Assembly (NCBI GenBank): GCA_964392445.1 | Contig: CAYMPD010000003.1 | Coordinates: 2,573-66,572, forward strand | Source of the DNA: an uncultured archaeon | GTDB lineage: Archaea; Aenigmatarchaeota; Aenigmatarchaeia; CG10238-14 | DNA length: 64,000 nucleotides | Reading direction: 5' to 3' | Shown: positions 16,470 through 25,027 of the stretch, piece after piece | How positions within the stretch are numbered: position 1 is the first letter of the stretch | How the letters are laid out: each line of letters begins with the position of its first letter | Translations under genes and position numbers: made by a program | The notes under the pieces: model-generated | Databases searched by the model: none | Told to the model about the DNA's origin: nothing | Seen by the model: the letters and a program-made list of their open reading frames with translations, nothing else

Positions 16470-16585
16470 GTAAAATTGTAATTCACGTGACCCCCTCATT
16501 TCCAGTCGAGATTTCAGATATCACGGTGTTATATTCACGCATTTCACACCCCTTGGTTTCATGTCGAGATTACTTCACGTTAACC
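16470..16585. promoter_or_regulatory. cluster of three TTCACG motifs with two tandem ~40-bp units (TTCACG-n-CCCC-n-TTTC-n-GTCGAGATT)
   Basis: attcacgtgaccccctcatttccagtcgagattt … tattcacgcatttcacaccccttggtttcatgtcgagatta … cttcacgttaacc; lies upstream of minus-strand gene 16141..16404 and downstream of polB. Confidence 0.5.
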
Positions 16586-19291
16586 AGGAACAAACAACCT
16601 AGACTTCTTACTGCCATTCTTAAAAACAATCTCCCCTCCGCAAGAATTACATTTACCAGTTAAAGGAGGTCTTCTATAAACATTATTACAACTGTTGCAT
16701 ATGAAACCATCTATCTCCGAAACACTATCCTCAAAATCATCCTTCTGTTTATTATTTTTCATGGCTTCTAGTATACCAAGTTGTTTGCCTATACCCGTCA
16801 ACTCGGACTTACTGACCCTCAAAGCCTCAAAAACCCTTTCTAATGGGGGTAACAACTGACTTTCGATATAATATTTGGAATCTATTGGTATGCTATGTTC
16901 TTTAATGTAATCAGGGTCTTCTGCACGCTTGGATATCATCTGAACTCCTCTAACAATAACATAACCAACCCTATCACCTACACCTGGAGCAGAAGCTGGA
17001 TCCCTTTTCATCATTTTTTTAACTAATTCCACATGAGGCTGAACGCCCTTATACTTACTAGGAGATCTTGAGATGCTCTTGGTTATAACTAATTTTTCAA
17101 TTGGAATTTTACCCGATTTAAGGTCGTCAACAGTCTTTTTAACGAACTTTACTGCTTTCCTGACATCCTGTTCTTTAAGTATAATCTCGAGAACCTCTTT
17201 TAGTGTCTCAGAAACCAAATCACACCAGTCCCTCCTGACAGTTTCTATACCCTTAGTAAGAATACTCTCATCCCAACCATCAGCCATAGGTTCAAAGTTC
17301 CAAGCGGCATATCTTTTTTTGGCGAGTAGAAGAAGAACCTTAAAAATACTTTCAACCTTCATGTGAAGTACGTGATTTATTCCCTCGTTTATCGTCTCTG
17401 ATACCTCTTCCCCTACTTTAAAGGCTTCTTCTAGATCCTTTGTATCTAATTTAATCATTACGCTGTCCGTATCGCCATATATAACCTTATAATCAGTTTT
17501 TTTATGAACTATTTCCCTGCTTTTCTTAATCATATCCCTTCCAACACTCGTAATCCCACTCGCAATATCAATAACATAAAACCTCGCACGAATATAACCT
17601 GAATAACCGTAAAATGCATTAGCAACAGTCTTGAATGCATATTGTTTGGCATAGAGATAATTCTTCTTACTGTCAGTTTTCGCCTTCTTCATCTTTTTTT
17701 TAATTTTTCCCCTCGCATCCAGAAGATAATCTAAAACGTGTGGTAAAATTCCCTTCCTAACATCCCCAGTAACAAACCTAGAACCAAAAGGTGTCTCCTT
17801 GTATTCGATATCGTCTTTCTTCCCCCTCAGAAGCGTGGTTGGACAAATGTTAAAACTGATAACAATCGAAGGGTACATACTGTGAAAATCTAGATAAGTG
17901 GTACAAGTATCATGAAATCCAACATCCGGTTTTAGAACAAATGCTCCCTTCAAACCACTACTCCTTCTTTCAGCCTTTCTCCTAGATATCTCACGATTAT
18001 CCGGTCTACAAGGAATAATAAAATCCTTCTTGTTAAATTCTCTCAGAAGAATACTATCTATCCTTTCGGTTTCGCCCCTATACAGACAATCCTGAAGGGT
18101 TATTCCTGAAACTTTCGATATCTCTACAAACTTGTCCAACATACTTTTCTTAAACAATATCTTAAGAGGTAATTCAGCGTCCTTTCTACTGTAACTTAAC
18201 AATTTACCTAACTTATCACCATTATCATTCCAATAATCGGCTATCTCACTGTGTGCAACGTCAACCTTATCTTCACCTAAAACATTTTTTGATACGTCCC
18301 CCAAACCATATCTTTTCAGACCTTTGAACAAACCGAATTTGTTAGCGGCTTCTTTAACCAAACTATAAACATCTGCTGATACTCTCCCTGGTATTGTCAC
18401 TTTAGTTCTTCCCATAAATGTCGATGTCCGAATTGGTTTCTGATCACATCTACCTAATGTGTTGGGAACATTGTTCTCCTTTAATCTCGTATCAATATAT
18501 GGTAAATCGAAGTTATTGGTGTTATAACCTAGGATAATATCAGGATCGAATTGGTCAATAATTTTCACAAATTCCTCAAGCATTTCTTTCTCTGAATTAA
18601 AACTAACTATGTCGTCGTCATATTTCTTAATCTTCCTCGCGGCTAAAACTAGAGTGTTCCTGTTTTTGTACGAAGGAAAGAATGACATGCTTATGAGAAT
18701 AATTGGTTCTTTTTTTGGATTAGGTTCTGATCCACCGGTGAAATATGTTTCTATATCAAAACTTAGGTAATGGAATTTCATGTTTTCATCTTTGTCTATC
18801 TCTTTGAAACTTCTTGCCCTAAATTTTTTTGTTGTCTTCACGCTGTTTGTTTTTGTATAACTTCCTTCAACCTCATACCACTTCATCCCAAAAATGTTCA
18901 TATCAGCCATAAATCTGTACTTGAAAAGAATGTCAGCCTCAAATATTTCCTTTACGATTTTTTTTTCTTTTAAATTATCCCTGACTACTGGTGTTTTACT
19001 TGGATTGTTTAAAGTTAGTTTGAGAATTTTGGTTTTCTTCTCTTGGTATCCTATCGGAAGGAATTTTTTGACGTAACTCATCTTCACAACATACTGACTA
19101 AAGTTTTTCTTGGCATATTCCTTTACTTCATCGAATTTTTCCTCTTTTGGTAAAACGTAAAAATAAGGTTCAAAATCATCATAAAAAACACAGGTTGATT
19201 TTCCTTTATCAGTCCGCCCAAAGAGACGAATTATTGGTTTGTTGTTTACAAGAACATAATCCGAGTCGAGAACCTGAAATTTTATTTTCAT
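16580..19291 (-). CDS. polB: family B DNA polymerase
   Basis: Exo I FDIETY; motif A DFHSMYPSI; motif C YGDTDS; C-terminal Cys4 zinc finger; 903 aa. Confidence 0.95.
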   Translation of the reverse strand: MKIKFQVLDSDYVLVNNKPIIRLFGRTDKGKSTCVFYDDFEPYFYVLPKEEKFDEVKEYAKKNFSQYVVKMSYVKKFLPIGYQEKKTKILKLTLNNPSKTPVVRDNLKEKKIVKEIFEADILFKYRFMADMNIFGMKWYEVEGSYTKTNSVKTTKKFRARSFKEIDKDENMKFHYLSFDIETYFTGGSEPNPKKEPIILISMSFFPSYKNRNTLVLAARKIKKYDDDIVSFNSEKEMLEEFVKIIDQFDPDIILGYNTNNFDLPYIDTRLKENNVPNTLGRCDQKPIRTSTFMGRTKVTIPGRVSADVYSLVKEAANKFGLFKGLKRYGLGDVSKNVLGEDKVDVAHSEIADYWNDNGDKLGKLLSYSRKDAELPLKILFKKSMLDKFVEISKVSGITLQDCLYRGETERIDSILLREFNKKDFIIPCRPDNREISRRKAERRSSGLKGAFVLKPDVGFHDTCTTYLDFHSMYPSIVISFNICPTTLLRGKKDDIEYKETPFGSRFVTGDVRKGILPHVLDYLLDARGKIKKKMKKAKTDSKKNYLYAKQYAFKTVANAFYGYSGYIRARFYVIDIASGITSVGRDMIKKSREIVHKKTDYKVIYGDTDSVMIKLDTKDLEEAFKVGEEVSETINEGINHVLHMKVESIFKVLLLLAKKRYAAWNFEPMADGWDESILTKGIETVRRDWCDLVSETLKEVLEIILKEQDVRKAVKFVKKTVDDLKSGKIPIEKLVITKSISRSPSKYKGVQPHVELVKKMMKRDPASAPGVGDRVGYVIVRGVQMISKRAEDPDYIKEHSIPIDSKYYIESQLLPPLERVFEALRVSKSELTGIGKQLGILEAMKNNKQKDDFEDSVSEIDGFICNSCNNVYRRPPLTGKCNSCGGEIVFKNGSKKSRLFVPG

Positions 19292-19349
19292 GAGTGATTA
19301 TATAGGTGTTGAAGTTTTTATGCTATTGGGGAAGGTAAAAAAATGGTTT

Positions 19350-20384
19350 TTAAATACCCTTTTCTTCAATTTCTCTAGACTTCATGTTCACAATGAAATA
19401 TTTGTTTCTTTTGTTGTTTGAGATGATTGTGGTTCCATGATAATTCTTGTGGTAATTCTTCTCATTGGAAAACAATACTATATCTGGAATTTGTTCGAGG
19501 ACAAAATAACCAAGTAATCCTTCTTCTCTTATCAATCTCTTGTTCAGAGTTTGTTCCGTATTTACTTTCTTTGGTACTGTTAAAATTTTTATACCCCCTA
19601 CGTCAAACATAGAAGCGTTTTCGTCCTCTGATATCAAAAAAACATTATCAAATTCCTTTATGACCTCTTCATCCTCCCAACCACCGTAAATAAAAATAGG
19701 ATCGGTCTTCCTAGTTTTCTTTAAAATATCAATTAACTTCCCTTGTTTTTCTTCCTCAAGTGTTGATGGTTTGTAGAGATATATCAAGTTTACTTTTTTC
19801 TTTGTTTTTTTAATCTCCCTTGTCATAGATACTTCAGGATAAATGATTTTTTTGATGTAAATCTCTCCTTCTTTCCTTTCACATTTAATCCCAATTATAT
19901 CATCCAGTTCTATTTTATCCACTTCCTTTTTCAAGTCATCATCAAAAAAAATATTTGTTTCACCTGTCTCGTCTTCAACCACTAAATTATTCATGTTCTT
20001 TCTCCTGACCGACACTATCACCGAGAAATTGGTTGTTTTGGGTGTTATTTTATTAACAGAGATCATTTTTTTGAGTTGTGTGTTATTGAGTAATATTTCT
20101 TTTATTTTTGTATATATTTCTGAAAACTTTCTGGTGTAATCTTCTGTTTTTAATTTACCCTTCTCAAATGAGAATTCCCTGATCAACTCGACCTTGATTT
20201 TTTTATCTTTTTTTATGTCTTCCGATTTCTCCAAATGTTTTTTCGATACTATAAACGGTCTTGGGGTTAGGTTATGTACCAGAGAGAGATACTTTTCTGG
20301 GTTTTTGTTTACTATAGGCAAAGCTTCTTGGGACAACTGAAACCCATTATCCAGAAATAACTTAACTGTCTCTTCTTCTTTCAT
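19350..20384 (-). CDS. DP1-like (PolD small subunit / eukaryotic B-subunit-like) protein with apparently inactivated, truncated phosphoesterase domain
   Basis: N-terminal LFLDNGFQLSQEALPIV resembles DP1 N-domain; OB-fold segment FSVIVSVRRKNMNNLVVEDETGETNIFF; positions corresponding to PDE motifs (DxH, GD, GNHD) read LYKPST, IYGGWED, ISEDEN (catalytic residues absent). Confidence 0.45.
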   Translation of the reverse strand: MKEEETVKLFLDNGFQLSQEALPIVNKNPEKYLSLVHNLTPRPFIVSKKHLEKSEDIKKDKKIKVELIREFSFEKGKLKTEDYTRKFSEIYTKIKEILLNNTQLKKMISVNKITPKTTNFSVIVSVRRKNMNNLVVEDETGETNIFFDDDLKKEVDKIELDDIIGIKCERKEGEIYIKKIIYPEVSMTREIKKTKKKVNLIYLYKPSTLEEEKQGKLIDILKKTRKTDPIFIYGGWEDEEVIKEFDNVFLISEDENASMFDVGGIKILTVPKKVNTEQTLNKRLIREEGLLGYFVLEQIPDIVLFSNEKNYHKNYHGTTIISNNKRNKYFIVNMKSREIEEKGI

Positions 20385-21592
20385 TAAATCACTAGATTTT
20401 CCTCTAGAACCTTTTTGATTTTACTTTTAACATCATTCGCTACGCTGAGTTTTATATGTCTCGTCCTACCATATCGACCAAGAGAAACAACTTTGGCATT
20501 AATTATTCCGGTCATGTCCAATTCAGAAATCAAATCAGAAACTCTTCTTTGGGTTAAAGGACTCATACCCAGTTCATTACAATAATTCTCATAAACATCA
20601 TAAACATCCCCGGTTTGTATCTCCTCTCTTTTATCTTCAACCAAATTTATTATGGAATAGAGAACTATCTTACTTTGTTTTGGTAACGATTTCACTGATT
20701 CTAAAGTTCTATCATAATCTATTTTTCTAAGCGCGGCATCAACATGTTCCTCGGTGATTTTTTCATGTCTTTGTCTTTCAGCTAATTCACCCGCTACTCT
20801 CAACAGATCTAATGCCCTTCTCGCATCACCGTGTTCCTGTGCAGCCAGAGCAGAACATTTTGGTATAACCTCTTCTGATAAAACATCGCTACTAAAACCC
20901 ACTTGGCTTCTTTGTTTGAGTATCTCCTGTAACTCTAGAGCATTATATGGAGGGAATAATATTTCTTCCTCGCCCAAAGAACTCTTTACGCGAGGATCCA
21001 AAATATCAACAAAACTCAGATCGTTGGTAATACCTATAACAGATACACTTGCTTGTTGCAAGTCTTGATTTATCCTTGTGAAATTATAAAGAAAATCGTC
21101 GCTCATTTTCTTAACCAATGTATCTATCTCATCAAGTATTATCACAACGACCCAATTCCGAGAATCAAGTACACGGAAAAAAGTATTGTAAACCTGTTGT
21201 GTTGGTAATCCGGTTGAGGGAACTTCCTGTCCTAGGAGCCTACACAGCTCGGCCATTAACCTATATTCTGTATCAGCTGTTTTCTTCATCTTACAATTAA
21301 TATAAAGAATTTTTACTGGTGTTGTGCCTTGGTTTGACATCTTTTCTAGTTCCTGACCCACATATTTAGAAACTAATGTTTTCCCAGTTCCCGTTAGACC
21401 ATATATGAACACATTCGACGGTTTTGCTCCTTTAAGAGATGGGGCTAATATTGATGCTAAGTTGTTGATTTGTTTGTTTCTATGAGGAATGTCGTTTGGA
21501 GTAAAATGAGAATTTAATGCTTTTCTATCCTTGAAAACCGGGTTTGTTTTTTTGATGAAATCTTGAAAAATTAACTGTGCTTCGTTGTCCAT
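20384..21592 (-). CDS. orc1: Orc1/Cdc6 replication initiator
   Basis: Walker A IYGLTGTGKT; Walker B ILDEID; sensor/GDARRALDLLR; C-terminal winged helix; 402 aa. Confidence 0.9.
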   Translation of the reverse strand: MDNEAQLIFQDFIKKTNPVFKDRKALNSHFTPNDIPHRNKQINNLASILAPSLKGAKPSNVFIYGLTGTGKTLVSKYVGQELEKMSNQGTTPVKILYINCKMKKTADTEYRLMAELCRLLGQEVPSTGLPTQQVYNTFFRVLDSRNWVVVIILDEIDTLVKKMSDDFLYNFTRINQDLQQASVSVIGITNDLSFVDILDPRVKSSLGEEEILFPPYNALELQEILKQRSQVGFSSDVLSEEVIPKCSALAAQEHGDARRALDLLRVAGELAERQRHEKITEEHVDAALRKIDYDRTLESVKSLPKQSKIVLYSIINLVEDKREEIQTGDVYDVYENYCNELGMSPLTQRRVSDLISELDMTGIINAKVVSLGRYGRTRHIKLSVANDVKSKIKKVLEENLVI

Positions 21593-21844
21593 ACCACTAT
21601 ATATTCTCCTATTGAAATAAACCTTTTTCTATTGGAAAACATATAATCCCTCTCACCCCATGATTTCTTGTAGAAATGATATAATAAAATATATTAAAAG
21701 ATATAACAATGTTATAATGTATGTTATTTTGTTTAAACACGACTATATTTTTTCAAATAATTAAAACATAATTTCTTGATAAAACAACCAATTCCCCAGA
21801 GTTTAATTAGAAAATTCTCCACACGCAACCACAGGGTGAGTGAG
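21593..21844. other. candidate replication origin (AT-rich intergenic region upstream of orc1)
   Basis: 252-bp non-coding, very AT-rich core (about 21665-21800) flanked by inverted CTCACCC (about 21652) / GGGTGAG (about 21829) elements; ORB-like ttctattggaaaac at 21625; immediately 5' of orc1. Confidence 0.4.
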
Positions 21845-22546
21845 TTAATCACACAAATTCAAAATTCTCCCTCTAACTTCTTTACCTTGAATATTAACCA
21901 AACCAAAATAACCTTCAGGAAACTTACCAGCGTTCATAAGAAAAGTTTCACCTAAAGTACCAACACCCTTTGCTTCGTGAATATGTGCAGATAAAGCGAG
22001 AACAGGTTTCTTCTCTTCAACAAATTTCCTAACAACATGAGATCCCACATGGGCGCCTGCACGGATAATATCAACCTTGGTGTTGTATGGTGGGTTATGT
22101 GTTATTTGGATTTTATATTTCGAACCTTTAACTTGACTGTAAGCTTTTTCTAACCCTCTTTTTAATTCCTCCTCGGTTGGTTCAAATGGTGTTGCAAAAG
22201 GTGTTTTAGCCCCACCAAACCCATAGAAACCATAATCACCTATAACCTTACCTTTACCATGAATACTAATATCTTCATCTTCAATCATTTCAATTACTTC
22301 TTTAATATCGTTGTTCCCTGGTATCGCAAGAACCGGTTTTTCTAACATTTTTAATTCTTCTATTATTATTCCGGTTATATCCTCTTCCGTGAAACCTTTT
22401 GGTGTATTAATATCGGTAAAGTCGCCCATATAAACAACAACATCACACTTAAAACTCTCTAACTTCTCAAGATAACTAATCATATTTTCAATATCACCAT
22501 GATTATCACCCATTACCAACAAATCCATTACCATCACCTTACACAT
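21845..22546 (-). CDS. calcineurin-like metallophosphoesterase
   Basis: Motifs GDNHGD, GDFTD, GNND, HNPP, AHIHE. Confidence 0.7.
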   Translation of the reverse strand: MCKVMVMDLLVMGDNHGDIENMISYLEKLESFKCDVVVYMGDFTDINTPKGFTEEDITGIIIEELKMLEKPVLAIPGNNDIKEVIEMIEDEDISIHGKGKVIGDYGFYGFGGAKTPFATPFEPTEEELKRGLEKAYSQVKGSKYKIQITHNPPYNTKVDIIRAGAHVGSHVVRKFVEEKKPVLALSAHIHEAKGVGTLGETFLMNAGKFPEGYFGLVNIQGKEVRGRILNLCD

Positions 22547-22901
22547 TAATTATGAAAACCAAGTCCTTAAAACTAATACCATCTTTTTTAACATTTGTTT
22601 TTGGTATATCTTTAACCCCCAAGAACTTCCAGTTTTTATTTCTCCAAGCAAGAAAACCCATTGCTCCAGACATATCACACCAGTTTTTGAAATTTTTATA
22701 TTCCTTTTTTCCTAGTCTTGGTACTGTTTTCCAGGCTTTACATTCAAATGCCAAAACCCTACCTTTTTTGATTGCAACCACATCTGGGGTAGATATAGAA
22801 CCACCGGACCCAGCGGCTCTTATCATAGCGAAACCACACGACTCTAATTTTCTACATAATTCTCTTTCAGCCCTAGCTCCCTTATTGTATCTTTTGACCA
22901 T
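22539..22901 (-). CDS. hjc: Holliday junction resolvase Hjc
   Basis: KGARAERELCRKLESCGFAMIRAAGSGG…PDVVAIKKGRVLAFECK matches Hjc catalytic core (E, PD, ExK). Confidence 0.8.
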   Translation of the reverse strand: MVKRYNKGARAERELCRKLESCGFAMIRAAGSGGSISTPDVVAIKKGRVLAFECKAWKTVPRLGKKEYKNFKNWCDMSGAMGFLAWRNKNWKFLGVKDIPKTNVKKDGISFKDLVFIINV

Positions 22902-23529: not shown

Positions 23530-23880
23530 TTGGTTTTAATGTTCACCTTTCATAATATCGAAAAATTGTTAGAGGATTTATTAGATTTCTCAGTAATTGT
23601 AGAGGGGAAAAGAGATAAATTAGCTTTAGAAAAGTTAGGTTTAACGGATATTTTTACTATTTCAGGAAAACCAATAGAAGAATTGGTTGAAGGTTTACCT
23701 AAAGACAGAAAATACATAATCCTGACAGATTTTGATAAAGAAGGTGAATTGTTAAAATCGGATATAAAGAGATTTATGTCTAAGAACGGGTTCCGGGTTA
23801 ATGATAGACTCAGAATTTCCGTTAAGAACTCTTTTGATATTATACAAATCGAGGAGTTGAAGAAAATTTCAAAAATAATG
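23530..23880 (+). CDS. small Toprim-domain protein
   Basis: VIVEGKRDKLALEKLG…ILTDFDKEGE Toprim motifs; true 3' end uncertain (ORF call runs into dnaG in another frame). Confidence 0.5.
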
Positions 23881-23884
23881 GAGG

Positions 23885-25027
23885 ATGATTATTATGGGAA
23901 AATTAGCACAATCAACTATAAAATATTTAATAGAAGCAAAGTTCTCCACAGACGGCGCGGTGGAGAAACCAGATGTGATAGGCGCGGTTTTTGGACAAAC
24001 TGAGGGTTTGCTAGGACAGGATTTGGATCTAAGAGAGCTACAAAAAACTGGAAGAATAGGAAGAATTGAGGTTTCTCTAAAAGGAAACAAAGGTAAAACG
24101 AAAGGAAAAATAACAATTCCTTCCAGTCTAGATGCGGCAGAAACGGCTTTAATAGCAGCAGCGATAGAAACGATTGAAAGGATAGGTCCTTGTGATTCTT
24201 ATATAAAACTAGTTTCTGTTAATGATATAAGATCAGTTAAACGTGATTATGTCGTTGGTAGGGCAAAGAGGATTTTGAAGAGATTAATAGAAGATGAAAT
24301 ACCAAATACAATGGAATTGACGGACAAAATAAAGGAATCAGTGAGGACGGCAGAAATAATAAAATATAAGGGATTACCAGCAGGACCAGACGTAATAGAT
24401 TCAGATGAGATAATAATTGTAGAAGGAAGGGCAGATGTTATAAATCTACTTAGAAATGGTGTTAAAAACGTAGTAGCAATGGGTGGGGCAACAATACCTC
24501 ATACAGTAGTAGACTTATCTAAGGAGAAAATGACCACAGTTTTCCTGGATGGGGACAGAGGAGGAGATTTAATACTAAAAGAACTTCTTCAACTAACAAC
24601 AATCGATCATGTTGCAAGGGCACCTCACGGAAAAGAAGTTGAGGAATTAACCAAAAAAGAACTTTTCAAGGCATTAAGAGAGAAAACGCCGATCGGGAAT
24701 GTGGAGAAAGAAAAGATAAAGGATTTAGATACAAAGACCAAAAAGAAACTCAGTAAAACTCTCGAAAAGATGATGGGAACAAGGGCAGCATACATATTCG
24801 ATGAGAAAGTTAAGTTAAAACAAAAAATTCCATTAAAACAATTCAATGAAAAGAACGAGAAGATAGAGAAAGCAGAAATAATTTTAGTGGACGCGAAAAT
24901 AGATGAGGATTTAGTGGCTATAGCAGAAGAAAAGAAGATTAAATATCTGATAGGGAAAGATAAAAAGGAAGAATTCAAAACAAAGTTCCTTAAAATATAC
25001 ACAAAAAATGATTTGGTCACTGAATAG
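23885..25027 (+). CDS. dnaG: archaeal DnaG primase (Toprim)
   Basis: IIVEGRADVINLLRNG…VFLDGDRGGDLI Toprim core; N-terminal archaeal DnaG region; 380 aa. Confidence 0.85.
   Translation: MIIMGKLAQSTIKYLIEAKFSTDGAVEKPDVIGAVFGQTEGLLGQDLDLRELQKTGRIGRIEVSLKGNKGKTKGKITIPSSLDAAETALIAAAIETIERIGPCDSYIKLVSVNDIRSVKRDYVVGRAKRILKRLIEDEIPNTMELTDKIKESVRTAEIIKYKGLPAGPDVIDSDEIIIVEGRADVINLLRNGVKNVVAMGGATIPHTVVDLSKEKMTTVFLDGDRGGDLILKELLQLTTIDHVARAPHGKEVEELTKKELFKALREKTPIGNVEKEKIKDLDTKTKKKLSKTLEKMMGTRAAYIFDEKVKLKQKIPLKQFNEKNEKIEKAEIILVDAKIDEDLVAIAEEKKIKYLIGKDKKEEFKTKFLKIYTKNDLVTE

Follow-up and report, generated by a model that had tools for sequence, protein, structure and literature searches.

The question raised by this locus is what a relative of DP1, the small subunit of PolD, might do between genes for a replication initiator and a family-B DNA polymerase once its active site has been lost. 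The gene lies in a 64,000-nucleotide stretch of DNA, here called the window, and the lineage is Aenigmatarchaeota. It occupies positions 19350..20384 on the minus strand and encodes 344 amino acids plus a stop codon, as an initial sequence-only reading of the DNA had stated. Upstream of it is an orc1/cdc6 initiator gene (20384..21592, minus strand) whose 402-amino-acid product matched NF001625 with 536 bits, above the cut-off, as well as Pfam Cdc6_C and Cdc6_lid. The ATG of the DP1-like gene and the TAA stop codon of orc1 overlap by one base (TAATG), so the overlap that had been claimed can be read directly in the sequence. Downstream is a gene for a 903-amino-acid family-B polymerase (PolB) of the "B6-aenigma1" type (16580..19291, minus strand; Pfam DNA_pol_B, E = 1e-118; exo1, E = 2e-39). 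The distance to polB had been given as 59 bp, but the spacer is 58 nt long (19292..19349, minus strand); it holds a TATA-like element, ctatataa, that may act as a promoter.

Sequence and profile searches showed that the similarity of the protein to DP1 is far beyond chance. Chains of Pyrococcus abyssi DP1 were the sole phmmer matches in the PDB (E = 4e-6, residues 31-194), and a family profile of 18 members matched DP1 in the PDB with an E value of 4.6e-12. The profile match consisted of two stretches, one over the OB fold and a second, weak one over the motif V region, in which family positions 281-340 were aligned with residues 427-491 of Thermococcus kodakarensis DP1 (the LKxRH...PD...GHxH region). 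The NCBIfam model for the PolD small subunit, NF003120, matched residues 56-197 (E = 1.5e-8). Homology was also traced through P0166, a more canonical family member of 466 amino acids, which was found by the profile of the window family (E = 3.5e-33) and which matches P. abyssi DP1 from end to end (E = 2.5e-70) with all five motifs visible. The search against DNA_pol_E_B and DP1 profiles proposed in the sequence-only reading thus gave significant matches to the DP1 profiles but not to Pfam DNA_pol_E_B. In the Pfam scan of the DP1-like protein, neither DNA_pol_E_B nor Metallophos was significant and the OB-fold match was sub-threshold; the 17-18 closest homologues likewise had no significant DNA_pol_E_B or Metallophos match. 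Pfam by itself would therefore wrongly refute homology to DP1.

The predicted structure leads to the same family. An AlphaFold2 model computed on the family alignment was confident (pLDDT 89.6, pTM 0.76), and Foldseek placed P. abyssi DP1 first among its matches (E = 9e-18), with the B-subunits of Pol epsilon, delta, zeta and alpha ranking next. The features by which the DP1/B-subunit superfamily is recognized are present: a single chain in which an OB fold precedes a calcineurin-like phosphoesterase fold, significant sequence similarity to DP1 profiles and, at the level of the fold, an N-terminal AAA+-lid-like helical domain like DP1N and the N-domains of the Pol alpha and epsilon B-subunits. 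The N-terminal domain comprises residues 1-60 (20205..20384, minus strand), and its fold matches include 7e15, the DP1N-Gins51 structure of T. kodakarensis. A profile of this domain found only chance ankyrin and sestrin matches among PDB sequences, so that the relationship to DP1N is detectable at the fold level alone. The OB-fold domain (residues about 113-186; 19827..20048, minus strand; AlphaFold2 strands at 119-181; Pfam tRNA_anti-codon OB, E = 1.5e-4) aligned to the OB fold of DP1. It contains VVEDETGETNIFF at residues 135-147, a segment that extends across two strands of the model and that phmmer aligned to FEVEDKTGIVKVFL of P. abyssi DP1. Both the N-terminal helical segment and the OB-fold signature of the sequence-only reading were thus recovered. 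That the protein acts alone through this OB fold, as an RPA-like single-stranded DNA-binding protein, carries next to no probability.

The remainder of the protein, residues 195-344 (19353..19802, minus strand), is a compact phosphodiesterase (PDE)-like domain whose fold is complete to the C-terminus. Motif positions were taken from a bridging alignment that runs through P0166 and several intermediate members to P. abyssi DP1. The position of motif I (SDxH) is taken by Y204-K205 followed by a four-residue gap, and that of motif II (GD) by G234-G235, after which a loop of about 20 residues (VVDGIG...) is deleted. Motif III (GNHD) is deleted together with about 30 residues that follow it. V270/P271-K272 stand in place of the HG of motif IV, N281-K282-R283-L284 in place of the conserved LKxRH and S306-N307-E308-K309 in place of the GHxH of motif V. 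Motifs I-V canonically supply seven metal ligands, none of which remains, and the motif set of an active, canonical DP1 (DxH, GD, GNHD/E, H, GHxH) is absent. The loss of the catalytic Asp and His residues had been asserted from inspection of the sequence, and none of them is present in the alignment. The three segments named as substitutions, LYKPST (203-208), IYGGWEDEE (232-240) and ISEDENAS (251-258), all exist, and the first two occupy the positions of motifs I and II; SEDENAS, however, pairs with the strand after motif III, which is itself deleted rather than substituted. Intact motifs after proper alignment would have spoken against the reading, but four of the motifs (I, II, IV and V) carry substitutions and III is missing. 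The protein is thus, on the evidence of its sequence, a catalytically dead homologue of DP1.

The domain was also said to be truncated after about motif IV, which is not the case. The position of motif V is present, and the PD element before it, the LKxRH helix, the YxG strand after motif V and the terminal beta-strands of the DP1 fold are kept. The domain is about 120 residues shorter than that of DP1 because of internal deletions, namely the loop after motif II, motif III with about 30 residues and a C-terminal loop, and this compacted fold is about as large as MJ0936 or Vps29.

Retention of nuclease or phosphoesterase activity through non-canonical residues would be consistent with purifying selection on the PDE-like domain (dN/dS 0.127 against the closest relative, L023) and with the invariant polar residues R283, D301, N314, Y315 and R337. 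The conserved PD, NYKG and LKxR elements, however, are also conserved in canonical DP1, where they lie outside the active site. With the seven ligands absent and motif III deleted, with the same fold serving as a scaffold in eukaryotic B-subunits and Vps29, and with 91 of 149 aligned family representatives lacking any motif, such activity is highly improbable. The motif-less representatives include the window protein and its entire clade; a single motif was found in 40 others, two in 5 and three in 2.

Loss of the active site has not been accompanied by loss of constraint. Compared with L023 (84% amino acid identity), the whole DP1-like gene had a dN/dS of 0.105 at a dS of about 0.8; the value for the N-domain and OB fold was 0.087, against 0.056 for the 3' end of orc1. 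An alignment of 18 sequences contained 27 invariant positions, which cluster in the N-domain, on the OB strands and in the C-terminal third. The low dN/dS and the invariant positions indicate a functional protein under purifying selection. At a limit of E <= 1e-30, an exhaustive profile search of 1.84 billion representatives detected 156 clusters (at 50% identity), nearly all of them of 310-413 amino acids. The DP1-like gene evolves faster than its neighbors, with identities across loci of 25-50% compared to 55-78% for Orc1 and 45-74% for PolB. This rate, together with the loss of the catalytic motifs and about 120 residues, is what would be expected of a functionless DP1 relic that decays after the loss of DP2. 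That explanation is effectively refuted by the dN/dS, the intact frame, the length conserved in more than 150 clusters, the high-confidence predicted fold and the conserved gene order.

The polymerase encoded downstream appears to be the partner of this protein. The ExoI-III and polymerase A-C motifs of PolB are intact (FDIET, NFDLPY, YSRKD, DFHSMYPS, KTVANAFYG and YGDTDS), and with its exonuclease motifs intact PolB is able to proofread by itself. In the PDB it was matched best by catalytic subunits of Pol delta, the human one with 393 bits and another with 370 bits, which scored marginally above Thermococcales PolB (about 360 bits). The C-terminal module of PolB (residues 859-903; 16583..16717, minus strand) is a single C4 zinc ribbon, C865-x2-C868-x12-C881-x2-C884, that resembles the C-terminal zinc finger of DP2. 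The NCBIfam DP2 models NF003103 and NF011302 matched PolB residues 863-890 (E = 1.2e-5) with their C-terminal zinc-finger region. The C4 motif is kept in all 13 related PolBs, and each of 14 PolB tails has one such motif. Directly upstream of the zinc module is QLGILEAM (residues 837-844; 16760..16783, minus strand), a putative PIP box. Thermococcales PolB has its C-terminal Q-x-G-L box at the corresponding position, which is also where the phmmer alignments stop. The C-terminus beyond the putative PIP box consists of the zinc ribbon alone, about 45 residues, without the helical bundle of DP2 and of the C-terminal domains (CTDs) of eukaryotic polymerases.

Pairs of this kind have been described. 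Archaeal PolB group B6 was defined by Kazlauskas, Krupovic, Guglielmini, Forterre and Venclovas (2020, NAR 48:10142, PMC7544198), who described a "B6-aenigma1" PolB of Aenigmarchaeota with one C-terminal zinc motif, closest to zfIII of DP2, that co-occurs with an inactive DP1 in the absence of DP2. They proposed that acquisition of a proofreading PolB with a CTD made the inactivation of DP1 affordable, as a model for the origin of eukaryotic B-subunits. The window protein has the attributes of their inactive-DP1 group, an origin in Aenigmatarchaeota and a co-occurring PolB with one zfIII-like zinc motif, and nothing essential separates it from their "Aenigma_GB_GCA_002789635-like" inactive DP1 with "B6-aenigma1" PolB: the lineage, the inactive DP1 and the zfIII-like single-zinc PolB are the same. 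A later study combined AlphaFold 3 with yeast two-hybrid experiments and found that DP1 binds PolB-DP2CTD in Aenigmatarchaeota, with a pair other than that of the window (Nat Ecol Evol 2025;9:2333, PMC12680538). The same study described the Aenigmatarchaeota PolB CTD as "degenerate", shorter and with a different predicted structure, reassigned "B6-aenigma2" to Baldrarchaeia contamination and placed the more eukaryote-like version in Baldrarchaeia, not in Aenigmatarchaeota. The arrangement of a dead DP1 with a B6 PolB is therefore already known (PMC7544198, PMC12680538), and both papers report Aenigmatarchaeota to lack DP2. No DP2 was found within the window: no open reading frame is longer than 903 amino acids and none of the ten largest others has a DP2 domain. 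The largest other open reading frames encode SMC, a Hel308-like helicase, GatE/GatD, Nre and an RFC-like ATPase.

The window protein differs from canonical DP1 (P. abyssi 5IHE/6T8H; T. kodakarensis 6KNB) in its missing catalytic motifs, its shorter PDE domain, a sequence identity of 15-19%, a score of 33.6 bits with the PolD small-subunit model that is far under the equivalog cut-off of 671, and a partner that is a family-B polymerase rather than DP2. In contrast to Pol delta p50/Pol31, Pol alpha p70/Pol12 and Pol epsilon p59/Dpb2, which have 430-600 amino acids, it has 344. The CTD of eukaryotic catalytic subunits bears CysA and CysB on a helical bundle, whereas the window PolB has one C4 motif and no bundle. 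In its probable function the protein resembles a B-subunit, yet it does not belong to the eukaryotic families. Vps29 and MJ0936/YfcE have no specific sequence relationship to it; they offer an analogy for a dead PDE domain as a docking platform, not family membership.

Binding of the DP1-like protein to the PolB CTD is supported by its adjacency to a PolB with a DP2-like ribbon and, by analogy, by the two-hybrid result from other Aenigmatarchaeota. The ribbon-only CTD of the window PolB, together with the "degenerate" label and different predicted structure reported in PMC12680538, suggests that the docking mode may differ from that in PolD.

Gene order ties the DP1-like gene to polB and to the initiator. 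The sequence-only reading had described an orc1 - DP1-like - polB cluster and proposed a survey of related archaea, in which the order proved to be conserved. A first comparison found the ORB-like region, orc1, the DP1-like gene and polB complete in 13 of 17 related loci. A Metallophos gene, orc1, the DP1-like gene and polB were all present in 11 of 15 loci (L001-L015), and the order recurs down to 26% identity of the DP1-like protein. Two further loci, L003 and L013, lie at a contig end and retain orc1, the DP1-like gene and polB; L012 and L014 gave no match to orc1. The gap between the DP1-like gene and polB is 1-90 nt in nearly all loci. Of 12 genome loci with a relative, 9 are titled as Aenigmarchaeota or Aenigmatarchaeota MAGs, two belong to unclassified archaea and one to a "Planctomycetota" contig that is probably mis-binned.

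The 252 bp upstream of orc1 (21593..21844, no strand assigned) are AT-rich (73%), with ORB-like elements in the form of an TTTCYAAWAGAAA dyad and GAAATCATGGGGTG and with direct repeats at 21626-21647 and 21664-21685. Relatives share both elements, which are otherwise rare in the window. In 10 relatives the dyad is placed about 40 nt ahead of orc1, and the two strands of the whole window together contain only 10 matches to it. The region is probably an Orc1-binding or origin region. Across it is a conserved 233-amino-acid Metallophos gene that forms an operon with hjc. This gene was considered as the "missing" nuclease domain of DP1 and rejected: its Metallophos match is intact, but its relatives are of the aq_1956/YfcE type and no evidence ties it to DP1.

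Thermococcales, Halobacteriales and Methanosarcinales share a conserved linkage of cdc6/orc1 to DP1 beside oriC, and it was proposed that Cdc6 recruits PolD via DP1 (Berthon et al., 2008, PMC2643942). The claim that the arrangement is not the textbook archaeal one therefore holds for PolB in the place of DP2, which is unusual, but not for the adjacency of orc1 and DP1, which is classical. These observations bear on whether the main role of the DP1-like protein might be at oriC with Orc1, where it would bring in or load the polymerase or some other factor, rather than that of a constitutive polymerase subunit. Such a role would account for the translationally coupled orc1 - DP1-like pair with its overlapping stop and start codons, and it would agree with the ORB-like elements, with the published linkage and recruitment proposal and with one relative (L020) in which orc1 is followed by the canonical-like DP1 P0166 and then NAC, without an adjoining polymerase gene. 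A role at the origin is, however, compatible with that of a subunit and does not exclude it. Another relative (L021) keeps the DP1-PolB pair without an adjacent orc1, polB follows the DP1-like gene closely in nearly all loci, and yeast two-hybrid showed binding of DP1 to the PolB CTD (PMC12680538). A main role at the origin is thus unlikely.

Very probably, the family-B replicative polymerase has two subunits, and the DP1-like protein is the second, non-catalytic one. The proposal that a dead DP1 homologue acts as a B-subunit-like partner of PolB is thereby upheld by homology, the lost active site, the DP2-like ribbon of PolB, synteny and the published two-hybrid binding. The protein would have descended from the PolD small subunit DP1 and would have kept its three-part architecture of AAA+-lid-like N-domain, OB fold and phosphodiesterase fold. 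Having lost every metal-binding and catalytic residue, it cannot proofread, and proofreading would fall to the intact 3'-5' exonuclease of the PolB encoded directly downstream. The dead PDE-like and OB domains may form a dock for the zinc ribbon of PolB, which would be the remnant of the C-terminal zinc finger of DP2. The conserved N-domain may tether the polymerase to other replisome components, much as DP1N was reported to bind Gins51C in T. kodakarensis (PMC9023282). We infer both how the ribbon docks and what the N-domain does from the structures of PolD and eukaryotic holoenzymes. Co-transcription with orc1 beside the ORB-bearing region would couple expression of the subunit to that of the initiator.

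How PolB came to stand beside DP1 may be approached from gene order and from relatives that keep their motifs. Replacement of DP2 in situ within an orc1-DP1-DP2 operon is plausible from the gene order of Thermococcales (PMC2643942). Since L020 has no polymerase gene between DP1 and NAC, polB may equally well have been inserted beside DP1. Motifs I, II, IV and V persist in eleven of the 149 surveyed representatives, together with a variant motif III (GNTD, GDHD or GExD). The loci of four of the eleven were looked up (P0038/L019, P0061/L021, P0045/L022 and P0058/L018), and in all four the motif-retaining DP1 gene is directly upstream of a gene for a B6-type PolB that is 51-54% identical to that of the window; the complete PolBs of L019 and L021 bear the same single zinc ribbon. 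In a neighbor-joining tree, which is crude, rooted on P0166 and without support values, the motif-retaining members were scattered among motif-less ones, with about 10 Fitch changes. This scatter, with a B6 PolB beside each of the four that were looked up, suggests that PolB was captured before DP1 was inactivated and that decay was repeated. We tentatively propose, as a scenario that may well prove wrong, that PolB replaced DP2 first and that inactivation of DP1 followed in many independent events; in some living lineages the holoenzyme may contain two proofreading nucleases.

A PolB that carries a metal module at its C-terminus and is paired with a dead B-subunit derived from DP1 parallels, in a prokaryote, the design of eukaryotic replicative polymerases, and so the arrangement bears on the origin of Pol alpha, delta and epsilon from PolD and PolB. 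This significance has been recognized and partly tested already (PMC7544198, PMC12680538), and the window adds a clean, complete example in an origin-proximal operon. Perhaps new, in a modest way, are the ORB-orc1-DP1-like-polB order, the compaction of the PDE domain by deletions and the motif-retaining relatives in the operon, none of which is mentioned in the main texts of the two papers. Matched active-looking and dead DP1 partners of one type of PolB could serve for experimental comparison. The family survey hints at a gradual and repeated loss of the active site; if true, nature would here have rerun the step from which the eukaryotic B-subunits arose.

The DP1-like protein (DP1L), a catalytically dead relative of the PolD small subunit, and polB are separated by a spacer of 58 nt (window 19292-19349), in which the sequence ctatataa lies about 15 nt 5' of the polB ATG. 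This element could be an internal archaeal promoter that would give rise to a near-leaderless polB transcript, and the co-transcription of polB with orc1 and DP1L may therefore not be strict. A PIP-like box, QLGILEAM (window 16760-16783, minus strand), was detected at residues 837-844 of PolB and reads QxGLF[DE]x[ML] in the relatives. In Thermococcales PolB, the C-terminal box that binds PCNA is found at this position; in the window protein, the box is internal because the zinc module comes after it.

Pfam Metallophos matches were obtained for four short DP1 relatives of 384-398 aa (P0038, P0061, P0045, and P0058, from the related loci L019, L021, L022, and L018, respectively), all of which have kept phosphodiesterase motifs I, II, IV, and V. 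Their genes are immediately 5' of a PolB of the B6 type with a single zinc ribbon, and these proteins may be intermediates with two proofreading nucleases. In a more distant Aenigmatarchaeota locus (L017, 6651-10571), the PolB frame is 1307 aa long, about 400 aa above the others, and its tblastn match was interrupted; this frame may contain an intein or another insertion. The DP1-like gene of the same locus has diverged strongly, with 22% identity across the OB fold.

The upstream side of orc1 contains an AT-rich region (window 21593-21844; 73% AT) with direct repeats at 21626-21647 and 21664-21685 and two ORB-like elements, a dyad (TTTCYAAWAGAAA) and a G-string element (GAAATCATGGGGTG). The dyad was found about 40 nt 5' of orc1 in 10 related loci, and the region probably serves as an Orc1 box or as a replication origin. 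Next to it on the minus strand (window 21845-22901), hjc, which encodes a 120-aa Holliday-junction resolvase, overlaps by 8 nt a gene for a 233-aa metallophosphoesterase. The latter protein has intact Metallophos matches and weak similarity to aq_1956/YfcE, and no evidence for kinship of this window protein with DP1 was found. A Metallophos match was present upstream of orc1 or DP1L in 14 related loci, with Hjc detected alongside in five. Two DnaG-like Toprim open reading frames (157 and 380 aa) are encoded on the plus strand at 23530-25027 and overlap each other by about 119 nt. Two Toprim genes are likewise side by side in the relatives L004 and L021, which suggests conservation of an archaeal DnaG that is either split or paired.

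In the related locus L021 (6543-7984), orc1 is missing between Metallophos and DP1 and is replaced by three small open reading frames (125, 197, and 71 aa) that are winged-helix-like in appearance, while the DP1-polB pair is kept. The 5.3-kb contig QNBZ01000113.1 (L007) contains an archaeal Metallophos-orc1-DP1L-polB cluster in a metagenome-assembled genome labeled "Planctomycetota bacterium"; it almost certainly comes from Aenigmatarchaeota and was mis-binned. The order in L004 is orc1-DP1L-polB-NAC. L020 has the order orc1-DP1-NAC, in which DP1 and NAC have no polymerase gene between them, and its DP1 (P0166, 466 aa) is canonical-like (E-value of 2.5e-70 to Pyrococcus abyssi DP1). The orders in L020 vs. 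L004 bear on the question of whether polB was inserted beside DP1 or replaced DP2 in situ.
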